64,000 nt of DNA from an uncultured Lachnospiraceae bacterium (GTDB lineage Bacteria; Bacillota; Clostridia; Lachnospirales; Lachnospiraceae). Made by a program: the position numbers and the translations under genes. Below, one piece after another: positions 8,094 to 26,663 of the stretch. The notes under the pieces were generated by a model. The model was not told the origin of the DNA, did no database searches, and saw only the letters and a program-made list of their open reading frames with translations. The stretch covers positions 7,387 through 71,386 of the forward strand of contig CALWHG010000006.1 in assembly GCA_944380315.1 (NCBI GenBank), given 5' to 3'. Numbering within the stretch: the first letter of the stretch is position 1; every line of letters begins with the position of its first letter.

Positions 8094-8176
8094 GGAAATA
8101 TCCTCATCATCTATCAATTTTTAAGCGCCGTGACCGGTACCACCAGCACTCCGTCTTCTCTTATGTAAGCATAGTC

Positions 8177-8268: not shown

Positions 8269-8296
8269 CCTGTCATATAAATTAGCTCCGGCCATA

Positions 8297-8325
8297 TACA
8301 ATAAAGGCGATGCCGAAGCACCGCC
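8297..8325 (-). terminator. Rho-independent terminator ending the MATE / small-membrane-protein operon
   Basis: On the minus strand, GGCGGTGC-TTCG-GCATCGCC forms an 8-bp stem with one G.U pair, followed by TTTATTGTATAT. Confidence 0.55.
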
Positions 8326-8331
8326 ATTCAT

Positions 8332-9308: not shown

Positions 9309-9313
9309 GTCTC

Positions 9314-10735: not shown

Positions 10736-10790
10736 ATCACACCTGCCTGTTACTACGGAAATGGGATCCTGTTATTTCAAACAACTATAG

Positions 10791-10819
10791 ATTATATACC
10801 CTTTATCTGTCCTTATCAA
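10791..10819 (-). promoter_or_regulatory. Sigma-70-type promoter for the MATE operon
   Basis: The minus strand reads TTGATA, a 17-nt spacer, then TATAAT. It overlaps the last codons of the MBL hydrolase gene. Confidence 0.5.
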
Positions 10820-11684
10820 ATACCAGAGCAGGATTTATACGTACATAGTTCCTGTCTTTTACATAGTATACCTCAGGACCTTCTTCAGCATGAGTAAAGT
10901 TGGGAAGTGACACATAAGAGCCCTCTCCTCTCATGACCTCCTCACATATATCTATGGCATTGGGAAGACAATCAGCCTCGAGAGGAACTCCTACAGGCCT
11001 GAAATCATGATGGCCGTTGAAGATATCATCGTATTTATCACTGAGCTCCTGCATCTTTCTGAGGCCTCTGAGCGTAGTTTCCACAGGAGTGACCTGGACT
11101 CCAAGATTATAGTTAAGGCCGTCTCCTACAAACAAGGTCCTCGTCATCTCATCAAGGAGCATTATCTGTCCTGCTGTATGTCCTTCACACTCATATACCT
11201 TTACGATACGTCCTCCACCAAGGTCAAACTCCATACCTTCCACTACGTCTTTGATCTGCTGCTTCTTTACAAGCTCAGGATCAGCCGGCTCTATATCTTT
11301 GTTCAGGTCATAGGCATAAAGATTATGTGTCTGATATATGGTAGGGCGGGCCCCATGCATCCTCTTGGCCATGGAAACAGGATAGGTCATCCTATGCTCC
11401 ATGTCATCATAGTTGATCCTTTCTCTGTCCTTAGGATGGATATATATCTCAGGAAATCTCCAGGCATTGCCAAGATGGTCTCCATGTCCATGAGTTATGA
11501 CCACCGTCACAGGCTTGTCTGTGATCTTTTCAACTGCCGCCTTCAGGTCACCGACTCCTATTCCGGTGTCGATAAGCAGGGCTCTTTCCGTTCCTACAAG
11601 CAGAAAGATGCTCGCACAGTCAAACTCGTCAAGCTCCCATGTATCCTTTTTAAACTGAACCATAGGATAAAGTGTCGTTGCCAT
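10803..11684 (-). CDS. MBL-fold metallo-hydrolase
   Basis: 293 aa with the HxHxDH motif (VITHGHGDHLGN) and downstream His/Asp ligands (CEGHTAGQ, FVGDG, NGHHD). Confidence 0.85.
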   Translation of the reverse strand: MATTLYPMVQFKKDTWELDEFDCASIFLLVGTERALLIDTGIGVGDLKAAVEKITDKPVTVVITHGHGDHLGNAWRFPEIYIHPKDRERINYDDMEHRMTYPVSMAKRMHGARPTIYQTHNLYAYDLNKDIEPADPELVKKQQIKDVVEGMEFDLGGGRIVKVYECEGHTAGQIMLLDEMTRTLFVGDGLNYNLGVQVTPVETTLRGLRKMQELSDKYDDIFNGHHDFRPVGVPLEADCLPNAIDICEEVMRGEGSYVSLPNFTHAEEGPEVYYVKDRNYVRINPALVFDKDR

Positions 11685-11705
11685 ATCTCTTTCCTCCTAA
11701 TTTGA

Positions 11706-13073
11706 TTATTTGTTCATGGCATCCTCAAACATATCAAGCATGCCTTTAACTATCTTATCATCATTGTTTCCGGGACGTACCTTGGCATAGCTCTGAAAGA
11801 CCTTATGATCCGCAGATGCATCATCAAGGATATATCCGGCTTTCCTGCCATCTGTATGGGTGACTACCACCGTATTCTTAAATGGAGATGCCTCCTTACA
11901 TTTATAGCCAATCATACAGTAGGGCTCTGCTGCCTGTCCCACGAAAGCTGTATCGCCCAGTATCGCAAGCTGCATCCTGAGGTCCACGGTCCCTTCGGGG
12001 ATCATCTCTACCAATTTCTTTTCGGGCCTTTTCCCACCTTCAAAAAGTTCTGGTCTGTATCCTCTCAGGAAATTATCTATCAGCAGCCTGTTGTATTGCA
12101 TGTCTGCGCCCTCGGGTGCCTTCTGGCCATCAAGCTTCACTATGGTAGATGCAGTAGTGATCCTCATCCTGCTCTTCATATCCTTTATGGATTCAATGAC
12201 CTTTATAGCATCTACGCCATGCTGAAATCCCCAATGCCTCTGTATCAGATACTGGGTCCCATCAGGAGTGTCCACGCTTTCAGAATATCCATCCGGCTCA
12301 TACATCCTCGGAAATCCTTCGGAAGAAAAAAGCGGATTCTGATCTCCAGCAGCTCCCGAAGACCATACTATAACAGGGTCTCCTCCGTAGCGCTGCTGCA
12401 CATAATTGCATGCATAGCCAGTAAACTCCGGGGATGTCTTGATCTTTCCATCCACATCCTTTCTGGTAAAAGCGCATGTGCCGTGACAGCAATAATTAAG
12501 AAGAGCAGCTATAAGCTTTCCATTCATATCCTCGAACTTAAGTACAGCCAGAGTCTTATCTGAAAAGCCTGCATAGTTCTGTCCCTGCATCCAGAAACCA
12601 TCCTCAAAAAGCTGGTCCCTGTTCGTATTGATATAGCTAAGCCCCGTGCCAAAGCCGTACCTTGCAGGTCTGAGACTTTCCAAGGCTCCTTCTATCGCCT
12701 TCTGTATCCCCGCCACAACGGTCTTGGCGTATTCATGCTCACATCTCGCCTGATCCTCAGGCTTAGGCCCTCTGGGGCCCGGTTTATCTCCCCAAAACGG
12801 GGCCGAGTGATTGTGAGTATTAAAATTCAATATATGCTCGTAGTCAAAGCCATACTTATCAGTTATAGCCTGCTTCTCGTCTCCATCAAGAGAATCTCCT
12901 ACGTCCATACCAAGTATCAGGAATCTGGTCTCCCCATTGTCAAGGACTATGGCCTTTACTTTAAGTTCATCAAGAGATCCCTCCAGAAAGGAATTTTCAT
13001 ACTTTCTGAAGGGAAAGAGAGAGCTTGGAGGATTGATACCAGCTTCAGCTGCGCCCACTTTCAATTCGTACAT
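11706..13073 (-). CDS. Cytoplasmic hydrolase resembling the neutral/alkaline ceramidase N-terminal family. Function unknown.
   Basis: 455 aa with no signal peptide. The N-terminal pattern VGAAEAGINPP...LKVKAIVLDNG...FLILGMDV...NTHNHSAPF parallels the ceramidase-family G.a..diTP / THTHSGP blocks. This is motif recall only. Confidence 0.45.
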   Translation of the reverse strand: MYELKVGAAEAGINPPSSLFPFRKYENSFLEGSLDELKVKAIVLDNGETRFLILGMDVGDSLDGDEKQAITDKYGFDYEHILNFNTHNHSAPFWGDKPGPRGPKPEDQARCEHEYAKTVVAGIQKAIEGALESLRPARYGFGTGLSYINTNRDQLFEDGFWMQGQNYAGFSDKTLAVLKFEDMNGKLIAALLNYCCHGTCAFTRKDVDGKIKTSPEFTGYACNYVQQRYGGDPVIVWSSGAAGDQNPLFSSEGFPRMYEPDGYSESVDTPDGTQYLIQRHWGFQHGVDAIKVIESIKDMKSRMRITTASTIVKLDGQKAPEGADMQYNRLLIDNFLRGYRPELFEGGKRPEKKLVEMIPEGTVDLRMQLAILGDTAFVGQAAEPYCMIGYKCKEASPFKNTVVVTHTDGRKAGYILDDASADHKVFQSYAKVRPGNNDDKIVKGMLDMFEDAMNK

Positions 13074-13096
13074 GATATCTGCTCCTTTTTGTCTCT

Positions 13097-14047
13097 TTAA
13101 TTAAGCTCTTCGATCCTGCAACACTGTACGAAGTGATCCTTTTCTATCTCTCTAAGCTGCTGGGGCTGTCTGCAAGCCTCTGTAGCATACAGGCATCTGG
13201 CTGCAAAACGACATCCAGGCTTGGGATTTATAGGCGATGTAAGCTCACCCTTAAGCTGTACTCTCTGCATCTTATGATCCACATCAGTAGAAGGGATAGC
13301 TGAAAGCAATGCTTTTGTATAAGGGTGAAGAGGCTTTGCAAAAAGCTTCTTTGAAGGGCAGGTCTCCACAAGCTGTCCAAGATACATAACGCATATGTTG
13401 TCGGAAATATGCCTTACAACAGAAAGATCATGGGTAACGAACATATAGGTAAGTCCCTGCTTGTCCTGAAGGTCCATCAGCAGATTGAGGACCTGAGCCT
13501 GTATAGATACATCCAGAGCTGAAACAGGCTCATCGCATACTATGAACTTAGGATTAAGTGCCAATGCACGGCCTATACCCACTCTCTGCCGCCTTCCTCC
13601 ATCCAATTCATGAGGATAGGCTCCTCTCAACCTTTTTTCTATACCTACCAGGTCCATGATCCGGTCGGCCTCGGCCCTTACCTCTTCCTTTGACTTGAAT
13701 CTTTTTGATATCTGAAGAGGCTCCATGATAGTCTTGGCTATATTGTATCTCGGGTTCAGGGAAGAATAGGGATCCTGGAATATGATCTGGACATTTTCCC
13801 TGTAGTCATATAACTGCTTTTTGTCAAGATGGGTGACATCCTGACCATCAAACAGGATCTTTCCGCCTGTACTCTCCTGAAGGTGGATGATGGTAGTACC
13901 AAGAGTTGACTTTCCACAGCCCGACTCTCCTACCACACCCATGGTAGTTCCCTTTTCGATCTTGAAGCTTACATCATCCACTGCATGAAGCGTACCATTA
14001 GGAACATCAAAATATTTTTTCAGGTGTTGAACCTCTATCAATGCCAT
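13097..14047 (-). CDS. Oligopeptide/dipeptide-type ABC transporter ATP-binding protein (OppF/DppF-like)
   Basis: Walker A GESGCGKST, signature LDGGRRQR, Walker B FIVCDEP, and a C-terminal oligopeptide-type extension. Confidence 0.9.
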   Translation of the reverse strand: MALIEVQHLKKYFDVPNGTLHAVDDVSFKIEKGTTMGVVGESGCGKSTLGTTIIHLQESTGGKILFDGQDVTHLDKKQLYDYRENVQIIFQDPYSSLNPRYNIAKTIMEPLQISKRFKSKEEVRAEADRIMDLVGIEKRLRGAYPHELDGGRRQRVGIGRALALNPKFIVCDEPVSALDVSIQAQVLNLLMDLQDKQGLTYMFVTHDLSVVRHISDNICVMYLGQLVETCPSKKLFAKPLHPYTKALLSAIPSTDVDHKMQRVQLKGELTSPINPKPGCRFAARCLYATEACRQPQQLREIEKDHFVQCCRIEELN

Positions 14048-14049
14048 TT

Positions 14050-15060
14050 TTACTGCTCCTTTCTTATCTCATGCACACGGATACATTCACAGAAATGCCC
14101 GGGCTCTACCTCGACTGCCGGGATATCTCCCTGTCTGCATTTATCAGTAGCATAAGGACACCTGGGTGCAAATGCACATCCATCCGGAAGATCAGTGGGA
14201 TCCGGTGGAAGACCCTCTATGGGACTCAGTCTTTCAGAATCCAGATTCATGTTTGGCAAAGCTCCAAACAATCCATTTGTATATGGATGAAGTGGGTTCT
14301 TGAATACATCTCTCTTCTTTCCGGACTCTATGATCTTACCTGCATACACTACTGCCACATCATCACAGGTCTCATTTACAACTCCCAGGTCATGAGTGAT
14401 AAGTATCATGGAGGTATTGAGCCTCTCCTTGAGGTCATTGATAAGCTCAAGGACCTGAGCCTGTATGGTAACGTCCAATGCAGTGGTAGGCTCATCTGCA
14501 AGAAGCAGCTCCGGTGTACAGGCAAGCGCCATGGCTATTACGACCCTCTGCTTCATTCCGCCGGAAAACTGGTGAGGAAACTCGTTATAGCGCTCAGCTG
14601 GTATACCTACCATCTCGAGCATCTTCTTTCCTTCCTCCACCGCTTCCTCCCTTGTAAGATGACGATGTGCTGTAAGGACTTCTGATATCTGACGTCCAAC
14701 TCTCATGATTGGGTTGAGTGCAGTCATGGGATCCTGGAATATCATGGAGATCTTATGTCCCCTGATCTTCTCCATGTCCTTGTCCTTGAGCTTCATCAGG
14801 TCTTCTCCGTCAAACACCACTGAGCCTTTTGCCGTTGCAGATATATCAGGCAATATCCTGAGGATAGCCTTTGCTATGGAGGTCTTTCCAGCTCCTGTCT
14901 CTCCTACAAGTGCAAGTGTCTGGCCCCTTTTAAGGTCAAATGACACTCCATTTACCGCACGGACCACGCTGCCCATGGAAGTATACTGTACAGTCAGGTC
15001 CTTGACGGACAAGAGCATCTCGCCATCATTGACTTTTTTATTATTATTCTCTGAACTCAT
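14050..15060 (-). CDS. Oligopeptide/dipeptide-type ABC transporter ATP-binding protein (OppD/DppD-like)
   Basis: Walker [10 protein letters not shown], signature FSGGMKQR, Walker [13 protein letters not shown], and a C-terminal Cys-rich extension. Confidence 0.9.
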
Positions 15061-15071
15061 ACTGTATTACC

Positions 15072-15947
15072 TCACTTCCTAAGCTTAGGATCCATGGCAT
15101 CTCTGAGGGAGTCTCCAAGCAGAGTGAATCCGACTACGGACAATGCTATGAACAGTCCGGGAAATACCAGCATATAAGGATATGTACGTATATATCCTCT
15201 TGCGCTTGCCAGCATAGCTCCCCATTCAGGCTCCGGCGCCTGGACACCAAGTCCTATGAAGCTGAGCGACGCACAGAACAGGAGTGCTGCAGCAAGTCTT
15301 GATGTGCAGTTTATGATCATGGGCATTACCGAGTTGGGTACTATATGTGAAAATATGATCCTGACACTTGAACAGTTGGATGCCTTTGCCGCCTGCACAT
15401 ATTCCTTATCTCTTATACTTAGTATCTGAGCTCGGAGTATACGCGAAAGTGCTGCAACATTTCCTATAGCCATGGCTATGACAGTATCATGATATGCTGT
15501 ACCAAGGGCTGCAGCCACGATTATGGAAAGCAGCATGCCAGGAATAGCTGAAAGCACATCCATGGCCCTCATCAGAAGGTTATCTACCCATCCGCCAAAA
15601 TACCCTGCTACAGCACCTATGATCAGAGCAACCAGGGCACCAAGACCAACTGACAGAAATCCAAGTGACATTGAATATCTGCCGCCATAAAGTATGCGGG
15701 ACAGTATGTCCCTTCCAAGATCATCCGTACCAAACAGATGTGCTGCGCTGGGCCCCTGCTTTGCCACAGCAAGATCCATCTCAAGATAATCGTATGGTGA
15801 GATCCAGGGCGCAAGTATGGCCAATATGATCAATACCGCTACTATAACGAAGCCAATGATGGCGTTTGGATTATGCATCAGTGTATTGAGCACTTCCTGC
15901 CACTGATTGACACCTGTCCTTTTTTCTTTCTTCTGAGTCTTACTCAT
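15072..15947 (-). CDS. ABC transporter permease (OppC/DppC-like)
   Basis: Polytopic BPD_transp_1-type permease. I trimmed the ORF-track start (15995) to ATG 15947, which abuts the upstream stop. Confidence 0.88.
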   Translation of the reverse strand: MSKTQKKEKRTGVNQWQEVLNTLMHNPNAIIGFVIVAVLIILAILAPWISPYDYLEMDLAVAKQGPSAAHLFGTDDLGRDILSRILYGGRYSMSLGFLSVGLGALVALIIGAVAGYFGGWVDNLLMRAMDVLSAIPGMLLSIIVAAALGTAYHDTVIAMAIGNVAALSRILRAQILSIRDKEYVQAAKASNCSSVRIIFSHIVPNSVMPMIINCTSRLAAALLFCASLSFIGLGVQAPEPEWGAMLASARGYIRTYPYMLVFPGLFIALSVVGFTLLGDSLRDAMDPKLRK

Positions 15948-15948
15948 A

Positions 15949-16917
15949 TCAGCCGGCTGCCTCCTTTCTCTTCTTTTTCTTTGAGCCTCCTGCAAACTGA
16001 GCCCTGATCATAGGATCAACGGCTGCATAGCAGAGATCAGTAGCAAGCACTACCAGCGAGAACAGTACTGAAAGGAATACCACACTTGATTGAGCTACGG
16101 GATAATCTCTGGTGTTCACGGCATTTATCAGATAAAGGCCTATACCAGGGATAGAAAAAACCTGTTCAATAACAAGGGCACCTCCAAGCTGGTTTGCAAG
16201 GTTACTTCCAAGTACGGATATGATCGGCAGCATGGCATTGGGAAGGCCATGGCCATATATTACCTTACGCTCAGAAAGTCCCTTCGATCTTGCTGTCGTT
16301 ACATAATCAGCCCTGACTACCTCAAGCATGGAAGCTCGGGATGTACGTACCATTCCCGAAATACCTCCAAGGCTCTGAGCTATAACAGGAAGTATATAGT
16401 ATTCCGGCCCACCCATGCCCTGAGCAGGAAGCAGTCCAAGCTTAAGTGAAAACAGAAGCACAAAGAGCATCGCCAGCCAGAAGGTGGGCATCGAAACACC
16501 TATTACGCAGAGGAGGACTCCTATGCGGTCCGCAAGTGTTCCTTCATGAACTGCCGTAAATATGCCAAGAGGTATACCTATAACTATAGATGCCAGCATG
16601 GCAAATCCTGCTATGATCAGCGTCCTGGGGAACCTTACCATCAGCTCATCAGTTACCGACGTACTGGTCCAATATGAGGTTCCAAAATCAAAATCTATAA
16701 AAGTCTGCTTCAGAAAGCTTCCCAGTCTCACAAGATACGGCTGATCCAATCCTAATTCATGTTCCTTTATAAGTATCTGTTCCTGGGTAGCATCCGCGCC
16801 AAGTATCAGCGAAGCCGGATTTCCAGGAACCATGGTCATGATGGTAAAGATCAGGATCGCAACAGCCAGTATTACCGGGATCATCATCAGAAGACGTTTA
16901 GCTATATATTTTCCCAT
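15949..16917 (-). CDS. ABC transporter permease (OppB/DppB-like)
   Basis: 322 aa: MGKYIAKRLLMMIPVILAV..., and an EAA-like loop DYVTTARSKGLSERKVIYGHGLPNA. Confidence 0.9.
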   Translation of the reverse strand: MGKYIAKRLLMMIPVILAVAILIFTIMTMVPGNPASLILGADATQEQILIKEHELGLDQPYLVRLGSFLKQTFIDFDFGTSYWTSTSVTDELMVRFPRTLIIAGFAMLASIVIGIPLGIFTAVHEGTLADRIGVLLCVIGVSMPTFWLAMLFVLLFSLKLGLLPAQGMGGPEYYILPVIAQSLGGISGMVRTSRASMLEVVRADYVTTARSKGLSERKVIYGHGLPNAMLPIISVLGSNLANQLGGALVIEQVFSIPGIGLYLINAVNTRDYPVAQSSVVFLSVLFSLVVLATDLCYAAVDPMIRAQFAGGSKKKKRKEAAG

Positions 16918-16946
16918 GTCTGTCCCCCTTTTTTCATGAGATCCAC

Positions 16947-16998
16947 ATAAAAAAGGTTAAAAAAGTGGCACGTGGAGCGCTGCTTCCGCGTGCCACTT
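16947..16998 (-). terminator. Intra-operon hairpin / partial terminator between the binding-protein gene and the permease genes
   Basis: On the minus strand, AAGTGGCACG-16 nt-CGTGCCACTT is a perfect 10-bp stem, followed by TTTTTAACCTTTTTTAT. Confidence 0.6.
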
Positions 16999-17043
16999 CA
17001 TGATAGATGGATAACTTGCCCGCTGTTTCAGGCACTTAATTTA

Positions 17044-18741
17044 TCAATCCGCTACACCTACATAATCACTGCTGTATGTAAATGCCCAAGGCTGAGCATA
17101 TGCAAGTGCCTGTACAACATAATCGGTGATGCCATCCTGAGATGCTATGTAGTTTACAGGTGCCCACAGGCCATAAATGATAGCATTGTCAGTGTAGTAC
17201 TCGAATACATCATTTACTGTTTCCTGGCTATTCGTGTCAGAGTTGTTTGCTATATCGCAAAGATCGCTGAGCTCTCCATCAGGCTGTCCAAGGAAGCTGC
17301 AGGGAACTCCATCATAGCTGGTATGCTCTGCTGACAGGAAGTTTGACCAAAGGGCTGCCAGGCTGTAACGGTTACCATTGTTATCGATCTTCATATCCCA
17401 CTCTGAGAAGTCAAGCTTGTAATTATCAAACAGAGCAGTATCTGCGGTCTTGACCTCTACATTGATACCGATCTCCTTGCAGTAGTTCTGGATCATCTGA
17501 GCTGCTCTTGTCTTAACCTCGTTGGACTCGGTAATAAGTACAAGGGTAGGAGAACCGTTCTTTACATAATCAGACTGAGCGAGATACTCTTTTGCCTTCT
17601 CTACATCATAGCCATTGTCCAGCTCTTCCCACTCGGGGTTGTAGTCATTGTAAAGAGGCGTGGAGAAGCCATATGATACTACAGCTGTCTGTCCCATGAT
17701 AGCCTGAGTCATTCCGACCTTATCTATAGCCCACTCTATAGCAAGCCTGAGGTTCTTATCCTCAGCCACCTTGGAGCCTGCATCCGGGAACATATTGAAG
17801 CTTACGTTTACGCAAAGTATGGAATCGAAGGGAGCGATGTTATATCCCTCAAGAGGGTTACCATCTGCATCCATGAAGAACTGAAGGTTATCAGCAGAAA
17901 CATAGTTTACTGCATCAACATCTCCTGTCTCCAGAGCCAGTGCAAGCTGAGCATCCTCAAGGATGATCTTGAAGATACACTTCTCAACGTTCTGTGACTT
18001 CAGTACGCAGCGAAGGCTCTCGTCTGTCTGCCAGTAGTTAGGATCCTTCTCGATGGTTACGGAAGCTCCGCTTATGAACTCAGTTACCTTGTAAGGTCCG
18101 CAGCCTATAGGCGCTGTGGTAAATGTTGCTGCATCGTAGGTATCCTGATCATAGATAACTGCGCCACAAAGTGTGGAAGGAACAGCTGAGGTCTCCTTGC
18201 AGGTCTCAGGATTCATATGGAACACTACATGAGTCTCGTCTGCCGCTTCAGCATTTACAAGATACTTTGAGAACTGGGTAGCATTTCCCGTCTCAAGGAA
18301 GGTGTTGTAGGACCAAGCTACATCGCTTGCATCGATGGGGTTTCCTGCCTGATCATGAACATAGTCATAGATCTCAACGGTTATAGTCTGACCGTCCTCA
18401 CTTACCTCATAGGACTTTCCTATAACGCTCTCAATAGGAGCTCCAAGCTCTGTGGCACTGAAGAGCTGATCGTGAAGAGCCTCTGTAAGATAGATAGTGC
18501 CAGTGGATGATCCGTTGAAGGGATCAAGGGTAGATATCTGGGTGTTCATACCAAGGGTGATCGTCTTGGCTATACCTGTAGACTCTGTCGCCTCACCCTC
18601 TGCTCCGGTCTCAGCAGCCTCAGCGCCTTCGGCCGCTGCTTCCGTAGCGGCTGCAGTAGTTTCAGCCTCACCGCCACCACCGCATGCGCTGAGTCCTAAA
18701 ACCATGCCAGCCATCATTACAGCTAAAATAGTTTTTTTCAT
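17044..18741 (-). CDS. ABC transporter substrate-binding lipoprotein, family 5 (peptide/nickel/oligosaccharide type)
   Basis: Start trimmed to ATG 18741 (AGGAGGAAAAC-ATG; MKKTILAVMMAGMVLGLSAC lipobox). It has an Ala/Glu-rich linker and then an SBP_bac_5-like body. Confidence 0.88.
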   Translation of the reverse strand: MKKTILAVMMAGMVLGLSACGGGGEAETTAAATEAAAEGAEAAETGAEGEATESTGIAKTITLGMNTQISTLDPFNGSSTGTIYLTEALHDQLFSATELGAPIESVIGKSYEVSEDGQTITVEIYDYVHDQAGNPIDASDVAWSYNTFLETGNATQFSKYLVNAEAADETHVVFHMNPETCKETSAVPSTLCGAVIYDQDTYDAATFTTAPIGCGPYKVTEFISGASVTIEKDPNYWQTDESLRCVLKSQNVEKCIFKIILEDAQLALALETGDVDAVNYVSADNLQFFMDADGNPLEGYNIAPFDSILCVNVSFNMFPDAGSKVAEDKNLRLAIEWAIDKVGMTQAIMGQTAVVSYGFSTPLYNDYNPEWEELDNGYDVEKAKEYLAQSDYVKNGSPTLVLITESNEVKTRAAQMIQNYCKEIGINVEVKTADTALFDNYKLDFSEWDMKIDNNGNRYSLAALWSNFLSAEHTSYDGVPCSFLGQPDGELSDLCDIANNSDTNSQETVNDVFEYYTDNAIIYGLWAPVNYIASQDGITDYVVQALAYAQPWAFTYSSDYVGVAD

Positions 18742-18846
18742 GTTTTCCTCCTGTACGTTCTTTTTTTGGTATCTTAATTGTACGGAAAGAAAAACATCTT
18801 TTAAATGTGATGAATTATGGTTTTTGTGCAAAATCTTTATATCTTA

Positions 18847-19806
18847 TCAGATCTTGCGTGTATTTTTGTTTAAAGGGTATAACATTGCGATCAGGATAAA
18901 GTAAAGAACCAGCACGCTCAATACTATATACTGATAGTATTGAGAAATGCCAATAAGCTGTAGTCCATTTTCTATGACCCCCACTATAAGAATGGCTACA
19001 AAGAAATTGCTAAGCGGTACTCTCCGCTTGATGTCGCTGTTTTTTATAAGCAGGCCCCCTCCACCTGCTATACATACCGCAAACAGTCCGTCCAGCTCCA
19101 TGCCGACTCCCATGTTAGACACGGCAAGCCCCTGCCTGGAAAGAAGTATAAGAGAAGCGAAGAAAAACAATATGCTTCCTATAACATAGATCATACATTT
19201 ATACCTTTTTACCCCTATGCCATTCTGTGCCAGGACTCTTTCGTCATATCCCATGGCCAGTATATTCTTTCCCGCCACCGTACTCGAAAAGATCCCGCCA
19301 AATATCAGCAGGCTTATGATCACCACTATATGACTTGATGTAAGCATACCATTGTTGAGGGATGAAATACCCAGTATGCTGTCCGGAATGTCCGAATACA
19401 TCATGCCTCCGGATATAAGGTAGGAAAGACCCTGAAATAGCTTCTGAGTTATGAGAGTAACGATAAATGAAGGGATGCCCACCACCGCTACAAGAGATCC
19501 ATTCAATAATCCACATAAGATCCCGGTGAGAAGCCCTGAAGCCAGACATATATATGTAGGAACTCCAAGGGAAAACATCTTTCCCATCAGGACACCTACC
19601 AGGGAGATCTGATATCCCAGTGAAAGATCTATCTCTCCTCCCAGTACTATAAATGACAAGCCTATGATCATAACTATCCTGTATTCATTCTGCATCCAGA
19701 AATTATACAGGTTGAATGCCGAGAGAAAATTTGGATTTACAGCAGTAAATGCCAGTATCAGGATCGCCAGCATGCTCCTTGTAGCATTGAACCTTAAGCC
19801 TTTCAT
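18847..19806 (-). CDS. Ribose/xylose-type (CUT2, BPD_transp_2) ABC permease-like membrane protein
   Basis: 319 aa, polytopic. It has the GGEIDLSLG motif (compare RbsC GGIDLSVG). The start overlaps the upstream stop (ATGA). Confidence 0.8.
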   Translation of the reverse strand: MKGLRFNATRSMLAILILAFTAVNPNFLSAFNLYNFWMQNEYRIVMIIGLSFIVLGGEIDLSLGYQISLVGVLMGKMFSLGVPTYICLASGLLTGILCGLLNGSLVAVVGIPSFIVTLITQKLFQGLSYLISGGMMYSDIPDSILGISSLNNGMLTSSHIVVIISLLIFGGIFSSTVAGKNILAMGYDERVLAQNGIGVKRYKCMIYVIGSILFFFASLILLSRQGLAVSNMGVGMELDGLFAVCIAGGGGLLIKNSDIKRRVPLSNFFVAILIVGVIENGLQLIGISQYYQYIVLSVLVLYFILIAMLYPLNKNTRKI

Positions 19807-21017
19807 GCGTACTCCTCCGAAAAGATATCCAGCATGGAAATACCTGGATCATACAACACCACCATGCCTGTTTCTCCAGTCCTTTCATCATAGCCTGAGT
19901 AAAAACTGTAGCCATAAAAGATCTCGCCTCTTTTCGTAAGCAGATTACGTATTATGTTATCCGCTTCCCTTTCTATGACAAAATCTCCTACAAAGCCCCT
20001 GAATACACCATTACCATTTATGGATCTCTCTACCAGCTCTCTGTTTTTCAATGTATTGTATGCGCCAAAAACAGCTATCTCCTCTGCCTTATGGGTCAAT
20101 TCACCCTGCTCGATAAACTCCTCCAAGCGAAATGCTGCTCCTATGGCAGCCTCTCCGCTGGTAGCAATGACTATCTGTATATCTATATTTTCAGGATTGC
20201 TTAGGATCCCGTCTATCGCTCTTTGTCCTTCAAGATTGGTCTGCACATTTGAATAATTATCTCCTGTGATCAGGCTTATCCTTGGCTCATAATAAAGGTT
20301 TACTATAGCTTCCCCGTCTTCATCCAGGATAAGTCCGCCTGTAGGCTCTTCCACCTGTCTTGTAACTCCATAACCGTCCGTATAATATACAGGCCCACTT
20401 TCATATCTCTCAAAGGTCATGCTCTGAAGATCATATCTTCTAAGATATTTCTCAGAGATAAGCTGATACCCGGCCATGGACATGATCTCTCTTTCCGTCG
20501 ACGCATCTCCCAAAAGAAGAGTCTTTACTGAACCCTCCTCTGTGACTTCATTTCTATCCAGGAAATCCTTGATAAGCACAGAGATACACAAGCCCTTACT
20601 GAGATGCGAATTAAGCATCTGGATATCGGCATTGGCCATGGCTCTCGCAGAGCCAAATGTCACAACCTGTATATCCCTTTTCTTTGCTTCCCGGAAAAGT
20701 CTCTCATATGCAGACGCATCACCCATACACTCGACTATCAGTGCCTCAGGCCTCATGGCGATAAAGTTCTCTATCTGATTTATCTGGGCATTGATATCAT
20801 TCCCACAATAAGCTACTCTGATCCCTCCATGATAATCAGAAAGTCGGTTTTTAAATTCATTTACGGTCTCTACGGTAAAACTGTTATCAGGGGATATCAT
20901 CGAAAGGCATGCATAGGGTGCTTCTTTCTCCTCTCTCTGCGTAAACATCAGCAGCACAAAATATACTGCTGTCATGATCACAAGCATTATGAAAATATCC
21001 CTTAGCCTTTTTGCCAT
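19803..21017 (-). CDS. Membrane-anchored periplasmic-binding-protein type I (RbsB-like) domain protein
   Basis: 404 aa. N-terminal uncleaved TM helix (IFIMLVIMTAVYFVLLMF) with no lipobox, then a sugar-binding-like fold (INQIENFIAMRPEALIVECMGD...DIQVVTFGS). Confidence 0.65.
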   Translation of the reverse strand: MAKRLRDIFIMLVIMTAVYFVLLMFTQREEKEAPYACLSMISPDNSFTVETVNEFKNRLSDYHGGIRVAYCGNDINAQINQIENFIAMRPEALIVECMGDASAYERLFREAKKRDIQVVTFGSARAMANADIQMLNSHLSKGLCISVLIKDFLDRNEVTEEGSVKTLLLGDASTEREIMSMAGYQLISEKYLRRYDLQSMTFERYESGPVYYTDGYGVTRQVEEPTGGLILDEDGEAIVNLYYEPRISLITGDNYSNVQTNLEGQRAIDGILSNPENIDIQIVIATSGEAAIGAAFRLEEFIEQGELTHKAEEIAVFGAYNTLKNRELVERSINGNGVFRGFVGDFVIEREADNIIRNLLTKRGEIFYGYSFYSGYDERTGETGMVVLYDPGISMLDIFSEEYA

Positions 21018-21037
21018 GCCTTTTTCCTATAAAATAT

Positions 21038-22429
21038 TCATCTTGAAAAGATCAAAGCTGTTGATATCTGATGGTGATCCATCCTGTCACTGCAGCTCCC
21101 ACCAGATATAAGATAATAACCATCTGCAAAATCTGAAAATCTCTCGAGTGTAGTTATTCCTACCACTATAGACCCCTGTGCTGTAAGCTCTGAAAGAGCA
21201 TCCCTTACCATCTTTCTGCAATTCTGATCCAGTATCTGGAAATGTCTGAATATGAGCACATCCGGTTTTTCTATCCTTAACTTAAACACTGCCATCTCGA
21301 TCCTGTCTTTTATGGTAAGCCCTTGGCAGTCCGTCATGTCCATATATTTTTTGTTTCCAGACCATTCCGTAAATTCCTTCAGGAAATAGCTTTTCAGATG
21401 AGCTTTTAACAATCCATGATCACTTATCCTGTCATCAAGTCCAAAAACCAGATTGTCTGCTGGTGTCATCCATCTTATCAAGGCCCCAAATTCAGTAAAA
21501 TCTATCTGCCTAGTCCTTACCTCTCGTCTTGAGAGTGCTCCGGGTCCCAGGACCTGATAAGCAGCTACATTCTTAAACGGTCTGTTCAAAGTCCTTTCCG
21601 GGTCAATGATCATGATAAACTCTCCCTTCCTGGCACCGATGGAAAAATCCGGAAAGCTTATCCTTAAGGCTTCATGCAAGTTCCCTGTCACAGTCCCTGT
21701 TTTATCCAGTCCTATATCCAGAGGGCTTCCTCCATAGATATTTGTATCAAATGTTCCTTTGCTTGATCGATCATCTACCCATATACATCGTCCGTTTTCT
21801 ATATAATTTATCCTGTCCAGTAAAGAAGAATACCATCCCTGATCGATCCCTGATATAAGGACTGATACACCCATTTCCCTGCATTTTTTCAGCAATGTCT
21901 CCATCAAAGTGAAAGCAGAGGAATCATATTCCAGCTGTGTATCCTCTGCCATGATCAGCTCTGTACCTCTCAATATCTCTTTTATGACCGCTACCACAAA
22001 TTTTTCTACAGGCTTCAGCCTCTCAACCGCTGTATCTGCATCTAACCTGATGCCATAGCCATAGATCAATTCCTGTACTTTATTTTTAACATTTGTCGAT
22101 AATAAGATCCCTTCTCCAGGCTTCCTGAATACAGTCATGTTTTCCCATATGGTCATGTTGTCAATAAGACCATAGTTGTTTTTCAGGTGTCTAGTTCTGA
22201 GTGGCCATTTCTCATCTTTCCATGGCACAGGTCTTCCCTTATAAAACCTATATCCCTTTTCCGGGACCAGGCTTCCCTCTATCGCCCCCATGACAAGAGA
22301 TTTGCCTGAATGAAAATCTCCTATGATCCCGACTGCCTCTCCCTTCAATATGTCAATATCGGCACCATATAATGCGGAATTATTCTTTTTTGTATAAACG
22401 GATCTAAGCCGGACAAGCTCATCCTTCAT
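21038..22429 (-). CDS. Tandem-NBD ABC ATPase homologue (RbsA/XylG-like) with degenerate catalytic motifs
   Basis: 463 aa. NBD1 keeps the P-loop GDFHSGKS, but the signature is LKPVEKF, Walker B is LIMAEDT and the H-loop is LISGID. NBD2 has no P-loop (IIDPERTLN), signature LTIKDRIE, and Walker B VLIFRHFQ. Confidence 0.7.
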   Translation of the reverse strand: MKDELVRLRSVYTKKNNSALYGADIDILKGEAVGIIGDFHSGKSLVMGAIEGSLVPEKGYRFYKGRPVPWKDEKWPLRTRHLKNNYGLIDNMTIWENMTVFRKPGEGILLSTNVKNKVQELIYGYGIRLDADTAVERLKPVEKFVVAVIKEILRGTELIMAEDTQLEYDSSAFTLMETLLKKCREMGVSVLISGIDQGWYSSLLDRINYIENGRCIWVDDRSSKGTFDTNIYGGSPLDIGLDKTGTVTGNLHEALRISFPDFSIGARKGEFIMIIDPERTLNRPFKNVAAYQVLGPGALSRREVRTRQIDFTEFGALIRWMTPADNLVFGLDDRISDHGLLKAHLKSYFLKEFTEWSGNKKYMDMTDCQGLTIKDRIEMAVFKLRIEKPDVLIFRHFQILDQNCRKMVRDALSELTAQGSIVVGITTLERFSDFADGYYLISGGSCSDRMDHHQISTALIFSR

Positions 22430-23189
22430 CAGACCACTCCGTCCTTACCGGTAAAAAGATCTCTATAAATGTCCCTATCCCCACAAAGCTTTTGATAGTC
22501 AGACCATATTCTCTTCCAAATAACAGCTGTATACGTCTGTGTACATTTCTAAGCCCGACCCCATGATCTCCAGTCTGTTCCGATCCCTCGTACTGAATCA
22601 GCGTCTCAAGCCTTCCAAGCTGCTGAGGCGACATGCCAGATCCATTGTCTGCTATTATGACACTGAGGTTGTTATTTACGATCTCGGCTTTTAAAGTTAC
22701 CTTTCCTCCTGTCGTGATATCGTTGAAGGCATGAAGGATAGAGTTTTCAACTATGGGCTGTAGACACAGCTTAGGCATCATACAGGCCAATATACGCTCC
22801 TTGTCATTTTCATCCATGTCTATCTTCAGCGAAAACTTATCTTTGAATCTGTACTTCTGTATCTCTATATAGTTCTTCAGATTCGTAAGCTCTTCCTCGA
22901 AGGTCACTACAGATCCCTTTACGCTTACATTGTATCTAAAAAAAGATCCAAGGGCCTTGACCGTATCAGCCAGGTCATACATCCCTTCATTGAGAGCCTC
23001 TCCTCTTATACACTCCAACGTGTTATAAAGGAAATGTGGATTGATCTGATTTTGAAGATAGGTTATATCTGCCTGTTTCTGAGCCAGATCCTTTTCAAAT
23101 CCAGCGCTTCTTGTCATCAGCTCCTGTTCCACCCGGTTCTTCACTATCTCTTCAAATCTTTTCGTAGTAAGCACCATAAGCTTTTCCAT
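22419..23189 (-). CDS. Soluble histidine kinase core (LytS/YesM-type His_kinase plus HATPase_c) with no TM, HAMP or sensor domain
   Basis: 256 aa. H-box QINPHFLYNTLE, N-box IVENSILHAF, G1 DNGSGM, G2 GVGLRNV. Only a coiled-coil-like 45 aa precedes the H-box. Confidence 0.85.
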   Translation of the reverse strand: MEKLMVLTTKRFEEIVKNRVEQELMTRSAGFEKDLAQKQADITYLQNQINPHFLYNTLECIRGEALNEGMYDLADTVKALGSFFRYNVSVKGSVVTFEEELTNLKNYIEIQKYRFKDKFSLKIDMDENDKERILACMMPKLCLQPIVENSILHAFNDITTGGKVTLKAEIVNNNLSVIIADNGSGMSPQQLGRLETLIQYEGSEQTGDHGVGLRNVHRRIQLLFGREYGLTIKSFVGIGTFIEIFLPVRTEWSDEG

Positions 23190-23195
23190 GATGTA

Positions 23196-24809
23196 TCACC
23201 CGTATATCCTTCGGTACTCCGTAGGCTTTATGCCCATTTTCTTCCTGAAAAGCTTGCTGAAATATCTTGCATCGGTAAATCCAAGGGTATCTGCTATCTC
23301 ATTTATATTCATATTGCTTCCGGAAAGAAGCTCGCATGATTTTTTGATCTTATAAAGAGATACATACTCATTAAAGCTCTGTCCTGTCTTTCTGGTAAAT
23401 AAAGCAGAAAAATAGCTTGGATTGAGATTTACTACCCTTGCCACATCTTCAAGCTTTATAGGCTCTTTATAATGCTCTTCCACATAAGCACAGGCAAGTC
23501 TTATAGGCTTTAAGCTGCGTTTTTCAACCAGCTCAGAGCATTCACTTATCCTGGCTCTGTATATGTTAAGCAATCTAGTTTTGTAATCTTCAAGCGAATC
23601 TGCTTCTCCCATCATCGAAACCAGATCCTCTTCCTCACCGTCCAATTCAATACCAGTCCTTTGTTCAAAGCTGGTTTTGCAATCATTAAGCATGTCTCCC
23701 AGTCCAAACACAAATGAAGCAAAATCCTTTGAGATCTGCATGGATCTGGGCATCAGGAATATTTCGTTTATGATCTTGTCGAAGCTCTTAGCCTCAAGTA
23801 TATCCCAGGTATGCTTTATCTGCTCAGTCCATTCCCTGGGCTTTACTCCGAGTTCATAATTTGAAAGTCTTTCACTCCATATCACCTTATTTGTCCCAAG
23901 TCCAAAGCGAGCAAAGACCGCCAACCAGCAGCTTTTATATACAGAGGGTATCAGATGAGATTCCGTAGTCCTTTCACCTACACACATGGTTATATGCATA
24001 CCGCGAAAAACATCCACAAATATCTTTGCATCATCATATATAGCCTTCAGTTCTTTTTCAAACAGGTCATGCTCTTCCCTTTTATAATTAAGCAGTATGT
24101 TTATGTATTTATCTCCGGAATAGCATATATGTTCAAAGCAAAAGCCTGACATCCTTTTTTCAATGATATCAAGCAATTTCTTAATTATCGAATTGATCTG
24201 CTCATCTTTGCTTTTTTCTATACGCTGGTCATCTATGCAAAGGCAACAAAAGCAAAAGTATCCCGGCTGAAGCTTGAGCATATACTCTCTGTTTATACTC
24301 TCAAGGGTATGAAAAACAAGATTGGCTTGGTCATTGCCCTTTTCCGATGCAGTCCTAAGCACGTTTGACATAAAATAGTTGTGTATGGATTCAATGTAAG
24401 GAGAATCATCCTTAGGCTGCGCCTTATCATTTAATTCCTTGATCACCTTTTTCAGTGTCTCATTGAGCTCCTCTTCATCCACGGGCTTTAGAAGGTAATC
24501 GTTGACCTTATATTTCAATGCATTATATGCGTATTCAAACTGATGGTATCCGCTAAGGACTATAAAGCTGACATTGTAGCTGTTTTCATTGCACCACCTT
24601 ATGACCTCAAGTCCGTCCATAATTGGCATGTGAATATCAGTTATAACTATATCCGGCTTTGTCTTTTCTATAGCATCGCGCAGACTTTCCCCGTCAAAAA
24701 CAAGAGCTGTGAGCTCAAGCCCCAGTTCATCAAATCTTATAAGGCGTTTCAGCATCTCACATATATTCTGCTCATCATCTGCGATTATGATCTTAAACCT
24801 GTCTTTCAT
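23196..24809 (-). CDS. Response regulator with a C-terminal AraC-type HTH (YesN family)
   Basis: REC domain (IIIADDE, VITDIHMP, YLLKP), a long middle domain, and an AraC HTH (INEIADTLGFTDARYFSKLFRKKMGIKPTEYRR). Confidence 0.9.
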   Translation of the reverse strand: MKDRFKIIIADDEQNICEMLKRLIRFDELGLELTALVFDGESLRDAIEKTKPDIVITDIHMPIMDGLEVIRWCNENSYNVSFIVLSGYHQFEYAYNALKYKVNDYLLKPVDEEELNETLKKVIKELNDKAQPKDDSPYIESIHNYFMSNVLRTASEKGNDQANLVFHTLESINREYMLKLQPGYFCFCCLCIDDQRIEKSKDEQINSIIKKLLDIIEKRMSGFCFEHICYSGDKYINILLNYKREEHDLFEKELKAIYDDAKIFVDVFRGMHITMCVGERTTESHLIPSVYKSCWLAVFARFGLGTNKVIWSERLSNYELGVKPREWTEQIKHTWDILEAKSFDKIINEIFLMPRSMQISKDFASFVFGLGDMLNDCKTSFEQRTGIELDGEEEDLVSMMGEADSLEDYKTRLLNIYRARISECSELVEKRSLKPIRLACAYVEEHYKEPIKLEDVARVVNLNPSYFSALFTRKTGQSFNEYVSLYKIKKSCELLSGSNMNINEIADTLGFTDARYFSKLFRKKMGIKPTEYRRIYG

Positions 24810-24951
24810 CTAAAACCCCTGAAAATTCCACAAAACCCAATCTGTTTTTGCTGATAAATCGTTAATATTATACGAAATATATAACTGCTTTTCAATAAAT
24901 GTAATCATATAATCGATTAAAAGTAACGATATATATAATCATGGAGAATAC

Positions 24952-25290
24952 ATGGAACGAGACAGGGCAAAATTTGACATACTGCAAAGAATACTTGAAG
25001 AGCGGAACATACGGGGATGGTCAGAATATACCCTCGCCCAGAGATCAGAGGTCCCGCAATCTACTATCTCTACATGGTACAGAAAAAATCTCCAGCCCTC
25101 TGTAGCTTCCATAGAAAAGATATGCAATGCATTTGATATGACACTTGCTCAATCCTTTTCTAAATATGATTCAGATTCTGTCAAGTTGTCAAAGGATCAG
25201 GCTGAACTTCTCACTCTATGGGATTCTCTTTCAAAAGATCAGAGGGACAGCATCCTGGCTATGATCAGATCTTTCGTGAAGAATCCATAA
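24952..25290 (+). CDS. XRE-family helix-turn-helix transcriptional regulator
   Basis: 112 aa with HTH WSEYTLAQRSEVPQSTISTWYRKNLQPSVASIEKICNAF. A GGAG RBS precedes the ATG. Confidence 0.8.
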   Translation: MERDRAKFDILQRILEERNIRGWSEYTLAQRSEVPQSTISTWYRKNLQPSVASIEKICNAFDMTLAQSFSKYDSDSVKLSKDQAELLTLWDSLSKDQRDSILAMIRSFVKNP

Positions 25291-25414
25291 ATCATTCTTT
25301 ATGTCAAAAACTCAAATATGTGAAAAATCTGCCTCCGTATATGTGCCAATGGATGTCTGCAGCCTCGAAGAGGCAAAGGGCCCTTGGCAAATATGCGGAG
25401 GAGCATTTTTCTAC

Positions 25415-25443
25415 TTGTTAAAATCCCCTTTATGTACTAATAT
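25415..25443 (+). promoter_or_regulatory. Sigma-70-type promoter of brnQ
   Basis: TTGTTA, a 17-nt spacer, then TAATAT, ending 29 nt upstream of the brnQ ATG. Confidence 0.5.
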
Positions 25444-25449
25444 TAGTAC
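25434..25449 (+). promoter_or_regulatory. Perfect 16-bp palindrome (candidate operator) overlapping the brnQ -10 box
   Basis: GTACTAATATTAGTAC is self-complementary across all 16 positions. Confidence 0.5.
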
Positions 25450-25472
25450 AATTACCCTCAAAGGAGGCAGGC

Positions 25473-26663
25473 ATGAAAAAACTGGACAGCGCAAAGCTCA
25501 TACTTGTAGGAGTAACTCTGTTTTCCATGTTCTTCGGAGCTGGAAACCTTATTTTCCCACCTTATCTGGGCTATCTTGCAGGAGAAAAGACGATCTCTGC
25601 ATTTGCAGGCTTCATGATCACGGCGGTCATATTTCCCGTGCTTGGCGTGACGGCCGTGGCAAAGACAGGTGGCCTTGACCACCTCTGTCAGAAGGTACAT
25701 CCGGGATTTGCCCTGCTATTTTCATTTGCAGTCTATCTGTGTATAGGTCCCATGCTGGCCATACCCAGGACAGCCAGCACGAGCTATGCCATGTTTGGCT
25801 TTCTGACCGGCAGGCTTGGAGAGGGCACCTTTCTCGGCATGGATGTCCAGCTTGCGGCAAGTCTCCTGTACTCGCTGCTCTTTTTCCTTGCAGCCGGCAT
25901 AGTAGCCAAGCGTCCTGAAAAGCTGAAGGACAGGCTGGGCAAAAGACTGACTCCCATACTCATACTTCTCATCATAGTGCTATTCATAGCGGGCCTTGCC
26001 CACGGAGAGCTTTCCGTAAACAGCTCCTCCGGAGCATATGCAGCCTCCGCCTTTGGTACCGGATTCGTGGAGGGCTATAACACCATGGACACTCTGGCAG
26101 CCATGGTATTTGGCATAGTCATAGCGATGAACATAAGAGATCTGGGCATAGAAAACAATGGCGCTATAGCCAGGGAGACCATCAGAGGCGGAGTCATAGC
26201 AGGCATATTCCTTGCATCCATGTATGGCATGCTGGCATTTTTGGGGATGCGAAGCGGCGACCTCATCAGCGGTGCCCAAAATGGAACGGAGATACTTACC
26301 GCCCTTGCCGGAGGATTTTTCGGAGATCTGGGGTCAGTCATACTGGCAGTTATCTATTTCATAGCCTGCTTCAATGTATGCGTAGGTCTCATATCCAGCT
26401 GCGCCAAGTTCTTTGCGGAAAAGCTGCATTTTCTGGGCTTTGATGCCTGGCGCTGGATACTGACGGCCTGGAGCTTTGGCATATCCATCATGGGGCTCAA
26501 TACCATACTGTCCATATCGGTGCCCATACTGAGCATCATCTACCCTGTAGCCATGGCAGTCATCATACTCAATCTGCTGCCCATAAAGGCACTGGAAAAG
26601 CCCATCGTGCATAAGCTGGTGGTGGCCGCGGCCCTGCTTTACGGGATATATACGGTGATCTGA
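25473..26663 (+). CDS. brnQ: Branched-chain amino acid transport system II carrier protein
   Basis: 396 aa: LVGVTLFSMFFGAGNLIFPPYLG and a polytopic LIVCS-family layout. Confidence 0.9.
   Translation: MKKLDSAKLILVGVTLFSMFFGAGNLIFPPYLGYLAGEKTISAFAGFMITAVIFPVLGVTAVAKTGGLDHLCQKVHPGFALLFSFAVYLCIGPMLAIPRTASTSYAMFGFLTGRLGEGTFLGMDVQLAASLLYSLLFFLAAGIVAKRPEKLKDRLGKRLTPILILLIIVLFIAGLAHGELSVNSSSGAYAASAFGTGFVEGYNTMDTLAAMVFGIVIAMNIRDLGIENNGAIARETIRGGVIAGIFLASMYGMLAFLGMRSGDLISGAQNGTEILTALAGGFFGDLGSVILAVIYFIACFNVCVGLISSCAKFFAEKLHFLGFDAWRWILTAWSFGISIMGLNTILSISVPILSIIYPVAMAVIILNLLPIKALEKPIVHKLVVAAALLYGIYTVI

Follow-up and report, generated by a model that had tools for sequence, protein, structure and literature searches.

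A histidine kinase without any sensor of its own, encoded between a response regulator and what looks like a complete sugar-type ATP-binding cassette (ABC) importer, raises the question of what such a kinase senses and whether the transporter proteins beside it transport at all. The locus lies in a 64,000-nucleotide stretch of DNA from an uncultured Lachnospiraceae bacterium (GenBank contig CALWHG010000006.1, positions 7,387 to 71,386; hereafter, the window), where five coupled genes are read from the minus strand. Our analysis suggests that the five-protein module is a CUT2-type ABC importer converted into a receptor, which signals to the kinase via a pseudo-ATPase and controls an Opp-type operon. 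We put the probability of this reading at roughly 60%.

Gene calls were taken from a six-frame list of the open reading frames (ORFs) in the window, domains were assigned with Pfam, and transmembrane segments were predicted by a Kyte-Doolittle hydropathy scan. The first gene (23196..24809, minus strand, as for all module genes) encodes a 537-aa, YesN-like response regulator with a REC domain (Response_reg, residues 7-119), a linker of ~300 aa, and an AraC-type helix-turn-helix (HTH) domain (HTH_AraC/HTH_18, residues 457-534). It is followed by a soluble histidine kinase core of 256 aa (22419..23189), a 463-aa tandem nucleotide-binding-domain (NBD) protein that we call the pseudo-ATPase, or pNBD (21038..22429), a 404-aa membrane-anchored, diverged sugar-type (cluster B) binding protein (19803..21017), and a 319-aa permease of the CUT2 (BPD_transp_2) family (18847..19806). 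The regulator and kinase genes are separated by 6 nt, the kinase and pNBD genes overlap by 11 nt, a 20-nt gap precedes the binding protein gene, and the binding protein and permease genes share a 4-nt ATGA overlap. These ORFs and junctions match exactly those described in a first-pass annotation made from the sequence, and the regulator ORF is complete, as was stated there; the domains and the transmembrane pattern that it assigned to the five proteins were also recovered. None of the five reached an NCBIfam equivalog cut-off, and all scores were far below.

The kinase has an intact catalytic core and nothing else. Its DHp domain matches PF06580 (His_kinase) over positions 2-81 of the 81 in the profile (E 2e-24), a HATPase_c domain follows (E 3e-11), and in an alignment of 19 sequences the phospho-acceptor His52, the N-box Asn149, the G1 box D181-N-G-x-G185, and further glycines of the G2 region are invariant. 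The hydropathy scan found no transmembrane segment in the kinase, the regulator, or the pNBD. There is no HAMP or sensor domain, and the membrane-sensor layout typical of YesM kinases is absent: the H-box His is residue 52 in the window kinase, compared to residues 275-730 in 48 canonical relatives. Pfam, hydropathy, and alignment thereby agree with the earlier description of a 256-aa kinase with intact H, N, G1, and G2 boxes and no transmembrane, HAMP, or extracytoplasmic part. By its PF06580 and HATPase_c domains with H, N, and G boxes, and by the REC and AraC-type HTH domains of its regulator, the pair belongs to the YesM/YesN type. Homologues of 249-265 aa were found down to 39% identity. 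The soluble kinases have in common an N-terminal motif, K[LW].[IV][LM][TS]...[FL][ED].[LI]V, which is missing in the transmembrane type and is a candidate docking element.

The pNBD, in turn, has lost almost everything that an ATPase needs. Pfam returned a single weak ABC_tran match (E 3e-6) that covers only residues 23-139 of 463. Upon alignment with FtsE and canonical tandem ATPases, NBD1 was seen to keep its Walker A motif (GDFHSGKS), with the signature LSGGQ changed to LKPVEK and the Walker B/catalytic D-E changed to E-D. Neither the Q-loop Gln nor the H-loop His is present, and NBD2 has no Walker A/P-loop, signature, or D-E, its Walker B being FRH. Among the catalytic motifs of a functional tandem-NBD ATPase, the Walker A of NBD1 is the sole survivor, which confirms the first-pass view that these motifs are largely lost. 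The defects are family-wide, as alignments of a 48-member family and of the proteins from the loci showed. No pNBD has a Q-loop Gln, an H-loop His, or a Walker A in NBD2, and almost all have another residue, mostly D, N, or a hydrophobic one, in place of the catalytic Glu; D-E is still present at Walker B in a few members (from loci L005 and L015; loci are referred to by L numbers). The true ATPases encoded at the same loci have GENGAGKS, the Q-loop Gln, DEP, SH[KR], LSGGNQQ, and GxxGxG[RK] all intact. The pNBD is, thus, not a normal active RbsA or XylG.

The pNBDs nevertheless form a recognizable family with a preserved fold. An exhaustive HMMER search of 50%-identity cluster representatives gave several dozen full-length, single-stretch relatives of 439-503 aa. 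Word-indexed searches with the pNBD alone or with a 42-sequence profile were dominated by generic ABC ATPases and recovered essentially only the query. The true ATPases formed one cluster in a rough neighbor-joining tree of NBDs, with the pNBDs outside it on very long branches; those partnered with soluble kinases mostly grouped together, and the pNBD nearest to the true ATPases was that of L035. An AlphaFold2 model made with the family alignment had a predicted local distance difference test (pLDDT) score of 86.7 and a predicted TM-score of 0.80. Its best fold matches in the PDB were the fused tandem NBDs of the Mycobacterium tuberculosis DppABCD/OppABCD importers (TM-scores of 0.64-0.67). 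According to this model, the pNBD keeps the fold and head-to-tail arrangement of a permease-docked importer ATPase.

The strongest link between the pNBD and the kinase came from a survey of kinase loci. The 80 metagenome loci that best matched an alignment of short kinases, together with earlier loci, gave 87 non-redundant, evaluable loci, which were annotated with home-built hidden Markov models of the pNBDs (the window protein and 47 family members) and of canonical tandem ATPases (10 members). The kinases were sorted into classes according to where the H-box His lies and to their N-terminal transmembrane helices. A pNBD gene lies directly downstream of the kinase gene, usually overlapping it, in 32 of the 35 loci whose kinase has no extracytoplasmic domain and in none of the 52 with a canonical long YesM-type kinase (570-690 aa; His at 275-730; two transmembrane helices around a large loop). 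It was present for 15/16 soluble short kinases (His within ~100 residues of the N-terminus, no transmembrane helix) and for 17/19 short kinases with one to three transmembrane helices (His at ~90-160, likewise without an extracytoplasmic domain). In seven of these 32 loci, the pNBD ORF is partial and runs off the end of the contig, as seen by frame translation. The regulator gene is 5' of the kinase gene in the short-kinase loci, with the order reversed in L045. The window has the same module of a regulator, a short PF06580 kinase, and a tandem pNBD in abutting or overlapping genes. These data show that the pNBD is a near-exclusive signature companion of kinases without their own sensor. The co-occurrence of short YesM-type kinases with degenerate RbsA-like genes is strong, and the earlier idea that the pNBD is the input partner of a sensor-less kinase gains strong comparative support. 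Judging from these neighborhoods, a functional partnership of the kinase and the pNBD is highly probable.

The neighborhoods also point to the partner on the other side of the pNBD, as the loci fall into an architectural series. In class I, the neighbor of a membrane-anchored kinase and a pNBD is a CUT2 importer with all its parts, namely a binding protein, a permease, and a canonical ATPase, and genes of sugar catabolism are often present too; all seven loci with a membrane-anchored kinase and enough flanking sequence fit this class (L008 from Massilistercora timonensis, L016, L021, L023, L025, L028, and L035). Class II, represented by L018, has a soluble kinase and a pNBD with an additional BPD_transp_2 permease that is highly diverged, next to an importer that is itself complete. 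In class III, which includes the window, L001, L003, L010, L014, and L017, a soluble kinase and a pNBD come with a private binding protein, anchored in the membrane, and a permease that is likewise private; an ATPase is lacking, and the importer next to them is of the Opp class. Two further loci also belong to this class: the binding protein-permease pair is divergently transcribed in L005, and L015 has a private permease without a recognizable binding protein. The module, therefore, reaches beyond soluble kinases, and the binding protein and permease are non-universal companions of the kinase/pNBD pair. A CUT2 permease is almost always within reach of the pNBD, and a private one appears exactly where the neighboring transporter is of the Opp class (BPD_transp_1/OppDF). 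Since a CUT2-type NBD could not serve a transporter of that class, this distribution argues that the pNBD works on a CUT2 permease. A complex of the pNBD with the permease, and perhaps the binding protein, is reasonably likely on these grounds.

The remaining two proteins resemble importer components. The binding protein has a single N-terminal transmembrane segment (residues 8-26 by hydropathy; a confident helix at residues 2-27 in an AlphaFold2 model) and its Peripla_BP_4 match is confined to residues 39-127. When five orthologues were combined in a profile, this matched ChvE/MglB/RbsB-type cluster-B proteins in the PDB over residues 34-170 (E down to 5e-11), with weak second matches at about residues 264-333, and hhalign aligned residues 43-166 with canonical binding proteins from the loci at 96% probability. 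By these comparisons, it is a membrane-anchored, derived periplasmic binding protein with ~100 extra residues. The permease has many hydropathy-predicted transmembrane segments, matches BPD_transp_2 (E 8e-21), and resembles AraH/RbsC in NCBIfam, with scores below the cut-offs. Of the ribose-type ABC set named in the first-pass annotation, a CUT2 permease, the N-terminal lobe of a binding protein, and a tandem NBD were identified by Pfam; "ribose-type" is a CUT2 family label only and has no bearing on the ligand of the binding protein.

Taken together, these features would fit the following mechanism. The membrane-anchored binding protein would capture an extracellular ligand and, once loaded, dock on a permease dimer. 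The permease would carry the tandem pNBD, with its ABC fold kept and its hydrolysis residues lost, in place of a working ATPase. A conformational change would travel to the pNBD at the coupling region of the permease, and the pNBD would open or close without hydrolysis. The soluble, dimeric PF06580-type kinase, made in stoichiometric amounts with the pNBD through translational coupling and bound to it, would read this change and switch between kinase and phosphatase states. It would in this way set the phosphorylation of the REC-AraC regulator, which, when phosphorylated, would activate the Opp-type promoter at a conserved box and, with it, the hydrolase genes described below.

Several observations weigh against this receptor. 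The counts of 32/35 and 0/52 come from loci that were picked by their similarity to the window kinase and are phylogenetically non-independent, and three short kinases (L045, L082, and L088, the last probably truncated) have no pNBD. L045:177-2713 and L082:2283-3410 encode membrane-anchored short kinases of the same family, which may represent a different solution for sensor-less kinases. Confident likeness of the binding protein to periplasmic binding proteins is limited to the N-terminal lobe, its C-terminal half being weakly matched, and its single-sequence AlphaFold2 model (pLDDT 41) is unusable beyond the N-terminal helix. In L015, a 407-aa gene (L015:10263-11486) was considered as the binding protein gene and rejected, as its product has 17% identity to that of the window and is non-homologous to it. 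This protein, which stands at the position of the binding protein, has no Pfam match. The Walker A of NBD1 is lost in many pNBDs, including those of L005, L023, and L033; nucleotide binding may be relevant to the window clade, but in view of these losses it cannot be what the whole family has in common. A CUT2 ATPase may be encoded elsewhere in the genome. We infer the contacts between the proteins, and likewise that nothing is transported, which way regulation runs, and which promoter is targeted; for the contacts this counts against the receptor as well. Lastly, a fourth class of loci has the regulator, kinase, and pNBD genes alone, in three lineages (L033/L039 and L038) with no binding protein, permease, or transporter genes within 5-9 kb, which shows that the kinase/pNBD pair can exist without adjacent membrane partners. 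The class IV modules (L033:14-3710, L039:232-2482, and L038:310-4095) have soluble kinases, and their neighbors are unrelated genes of a housekeeping type (AAA ATPase, PP-loop ATPase, SDR, an RNase R/II-type RNB-domain ribonuclease, and patatin; H+-PPase and PriA).

The class IV loci bear most directly on an alternative in which the pNBD acts in the cytoplasm only, as an input or regulatory subunit for the kinase such as a nucleotide- or metabolite-responsive scaffold comparable to PhoU or GraX, and never sits on a permease. The binding protein and permease would then be a separate transporter fragment, either functional or vestigial. The P-loop Lys of NBD1, which the window clade and most of the 48 family representatives retain, is also compatible with the sensing of a nucleotide or another ligand. 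However, the P-loop is lost in many members, a CUT2 permease adjoins the pNBD in the great majority of loci with enough flank, and an ATPase-less private permease is present precisely where the neighboring transporter is not of the CUT2 family. The nearest fold matches, moreover, are NBDs of importers that dock on a permease. We consider a solely cytoplasmic role unlikely for these reasons.

Another possibility is that the binding protein and permease form a live importer energized by a canonical tandem ATPase in trans, while the pNBD competes with that ATPase or reports flux to the kinase in a Bce-like manner. This is plausible in class I, where the canonical ATPase, permease, and binding protein are all present in addition to the pNBD, which must share or compete for the permease of the active transporter if it docks at all. 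In contrast, a CUT2 ATPase is absent from the clusters of the window and five related loci. The 64-kb window as a whole contains no CUT2 ATPase, no other kinase of the PF06580 type, and no canonical membrane kinase, so that the alternative of such a kinase as the real partner of the regulator finds no candidate there. The sole other tandem-NBD protein in the window (34110-35747, minus strand) is an ABC-F ATPase, which is not a transporter (NCBIfam PRK15064, E 1.5e-204, just under the cut-off).

The window-clade permease also differs from those of live importers. When window-clade permeases were compared with 17 canonical permeases, the overall topology was found to be kept and two conserved regions to be altered. 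The cytoplasmic region G[RK].[IV]YA[IV]G.N.EAA..[SA]G[IV], present in 17/17 canonical permeases, reads GKNILAMGYDERVLAQNGI in the window clade, and this change in the coupling region, from A[IV]G.N.EAA to AMGYDE..L, is clade-specific among the sensor permeases. The GG[VT]S..GG.G motif, (nearly) invariant in the canonical permeases, is split by a charged 7-residue insert (AGGGGLLIKNSDIKRR). Both changes would fit a permease with an NBD interface of its own and an impaired translocation path. In addition, the sensor proteins evolve much faster than the neighboring Opp transporter: between the window and the cultured isolate Clostridium sp. AM30-24, identity is 57% for the regulator, 69% for the kinase, 41% for the pNBD, 49% for the binding protein, and 59% for the permease, compared to 76% for SBP_bac_5 and 87% for OppB. 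Fast divergence with intact ORFs is consistent with proteins whose structure is constrained and whose catalysis no longer is. The ortholog pairs at hand are near-identical or saturated for the ratio of nonsynonymous to synonymous substitution rates (dN/dS). Overall, a live importer at this locus appears more doubtful than a cytoplasmic subunit, and from the motifs and divergence it is quite likely that the module does not transport.

The locus itself is not decayed. The five-gene order of regulator, kinase, pNBD, binding protein, and permease, with its linkage to an Opp/Dpp importer (SBP_bac_5 and OppBCDF), is repeated on the contigs of relatives, and the gene set recurs down to 26-42% protein identity. 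Kinase identity to the window is 70% in L001/L002, 61% in L003/L004, 55% in L014, where a ceramidase-like gene is inserted, and 42% in L015, where the Opp operon is upstream of the module instead of downstream. A search of the GTDB species representatives with a 5-sequence alignment returned three close relatives only; the ten-gene arrangement was found in Clostridium sp. AM30-24 and two uncultured Clostridia. That the locus is a functionless, decaying remnant with a truncated kinase and pseudogenized transporter genes, as the weak Pfam scores of the NBD and binding proteins and the lost catalytic motifs might suggest, is effectively refuted by full-length ORFs of constant size and order across these relatives in many metagenomes and genomes, by the invariant catalytic residues of the kinase, by the confident fold of the pNBD, and by the conserved overlaps of start and stop codons. 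The module thus recurs across relatives, where the first-pass annotation had allowed for a decayed locus without conserved linkage. Carriers are Clostridia of the human gut and of fermenters, namely Clostridium sp. AM30-24, Massilistercora timonensis, Dorea sp., and Eubacteriales metagenome-assembled genomes. The closest metagenome relative, L017 (kinase 64% identical), is an 8.2-kb human-gut contig with a coverage of 1.6x, and its regulator, pNBD, and binding protein genes are each split into two ORFs. The splits are likely low-coverage sequencing errors, although they may reflect real decay.

What the receptor would control is suggested by the region downstream. The Opp/Dpp-type importer genes (SBP_bac_5, OppB, OppC, OppD, and OppF by Pfam; 13097..18741, minus strand) are linked to the sensor module in L001, L003, L010, L014, and L015, either upstream or downstream of it. 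In the window, a box reading ATTTTGCACAAAAAC lies upstream of this operon (18820..18834, minus strand) and is followed, before the SBP_bac_5 gene, by a promoter-like site (18777..18805, minus strand) recognized by consensus and by its conserved TACAAT -10 element. The box is common to four diverged loci and occurs once in the window; it and the TACAAT element are kept in L001, L010, and L003 despite extensive protein divergence. The start of SBP_bac_5 in the ORF list, TTG 18831, overlaps the box. Its start is most likely ATG 18741, from which the product begins with a signal-peptide-like N-terminus (MKKTILAVMM...), and this start gives an intergenic region of ~105 nt that holds both the box and the promoter-like site. 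We regard the box as a candidate operator of the AraC-type regulator, and it is somewhat probable from its conservation and position that the Opp-type operon is the target of the module. The functional unit would, thus, probably include that operon via its own promoter.

After the Opp genes, on the same strand, come a 455-aa Ceramidase_alk-like hydrolase gene (11706-13073), assigned by a weak match to the N-terminal domain of neutral/alkaline ceramidases (Pfam E 1.6e-5; PDB 2zws, E 0.003), and a gene for a 293-aa hydrolase of the metallo-beta-lactamase (MBL) fold (10803-11684). The ceramidase-like gene is also found within the L014 cluster, and an MBL homologue adjoins the L018 module. The likely regulon, which we infer from this layout, consists of the Opp-type importer and these two hydrolases. 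The hydrolases may hint at a class of substrate; no lead on the ligand came from PDB and family searches with the ceramidase-like hydrolase or the SBP_bac_5 protein.

On the other side of the module, a promoter-like site (TTGAAA-17-TATAAT; 24867..24895, minus strand) lies 5' of the regulator gene, where it is a consensus match only (11/12). Directly upstream of this promoter region, a divergent gene encodes a Cro/C1-type HTH protein of 112 aa (24952-25290, plus strand), after which comes a gene for a BrnQ-type branched-chain amino-acid carrier (25473-26663, plus strand). G+C content is 0.42-0.47 over window positions 8001-26000, which hold the sensor, Opp-type, hydrolase, and MatE cluster, compared to 0.49-0.54 in both flanks. 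Judging by this composition, the block may have been horizontally acquired.

If the reading extends to the related loci, it would describe a widespread receptor class in gut and fermenter Clostridia that has gone undescribed. A non-catalytic NBD would replace the sensor domain of the kinase and couple the conformational cycle of a CUT2 importer, whether shared with a live transporter or privately duplicated and transport-dead, to a soluble kinase, making it a prokaryotic "transceptor" built from ABC parts. The classes would then form an evolutionary series, from a membrane-anchored kinase with a live transporter, through a soluble kinase with a private permease, to a fully private, dead transporter. 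We consider this broader proposal an even bet. If the proposed contacts hold, the module would show how a signaling enzyme can read NBD closure, and it would offer a natural system in which ABC conformational coupling is separated from hydrolysis. Hundreds of genes in Lachnospiraceae and Eubacteriales genomes from the human gut, whose present label is "sugar ABC transporter ATP-binding protein" or else "sensor histidine kinase", would be explained as well. In annotation practice, pNBDs should be left out when transport capacity is tallied. Since Clostridium sp. AM30-24 carries the module and is in culture, the hypothesis can be tested directly.

Sensing through transporters is itself well known, as in the Bce/Gra modules, Pst-PhoU-PhoR, and DctA-DcuS. 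Throughout the cases found in the literature, an active transporter is combined with a membrane-embedded kinase. The full-text literature searched, from which most subscription-journal papers are missing, yielded no account of a histidine kinase with a pseudo-ATPase as its partner, which agrees with the first-pass statement that the architecture maps onto no described system. In PstSCAB-PhoU-PhoR, a kinase without a meaningful periplasmic sensor is signaled by an ABC importer from the cytoplasmic side, via a protein that contacts the NBD. In that system, PstB is an active ATPase within a functioning transporter, PhoU has no relation to NBDs, and PhoR is membrane-anchored. The module proposed here would likewise have a sensor-less kinase instructed by an ABC system, but its NBD motifs are lost and its kinase is soluble. 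In common with the canonical CUT2 importers (RbsABC, XylFGH, MglABC, and AraFGH), the module has a permease of the BPD_transp_2 family, two NBDs in tandem on one polypeptide, and a binding protein with a cluster-B-like N-terminal lobe; unlike them, its NCBIfam scores are below the cut-offs, its catalytic motifs are missing, its binding protein is membrane-anchored with extra residues, and its permease motif is disrupted.

Three-component sugar sensors offer a parallel on the regulatory side. In XylFII-LytS-YesN of Clostridium beijerinckii, CuaD-CuaS-CuaR of Ruminiclostridium cellulolyticum, and HptA-HptS-HptR of Staphylococcus aureus, a non-transporting binding-protein paralogue, a kinase, and an AraC-type regulator control an adjacent ABC importer (PMC8050422, PMC3656788, PMC10384115). 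The window module also combines a binding-protein paralogue with a kinase and an AraC-type regulator beside an ABC importer. In those sensors, however, the binding protein touches an extracytoplasmic domain of the kinase and there is no permease or NBD paralogue, whereas the window kinase lacks membrane and extracytoplasmic parts alike and offers nothing to touch. Further parallels are the antimicrobial-peptide modules BceRS-BceAB of Bacillus subtilis and the five-component GraXRS-VraFG of S. aureus, in which a sensor-less kinase relies on a co-encoded ABC transporter as its actual sensor (PMC7828314, PMC3023708). Like these, the window module is multi-component, with a kinase without its own sensor encoded beside ABC proteins, and the membrane-anchored relatives of its kinase (two transmembrane helices and no loop) resemble intramembrane-sensing kinases. 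BceAB, in contrast, has an exporter-type FtsX fold with a large extracellular loop and an active ATPase whose activity is reported, while the window has an importer-type CUT2 permease with a binding protein and degenerate NBD motifs. The pNBD is a dedicated extra gene, unlike in the Bce modules. The Bce kinases are of the HisKA_3 type, paired with OmpR-type regulators, and always membrane-embedded; the window kinase is of the PF06580 type, soluble, and paired with an AraC-type regulator. On this comparison, the module is a variant of two-component sensing that depends on a transporter, and there is a real chance that it forms a receptor class in its own right.

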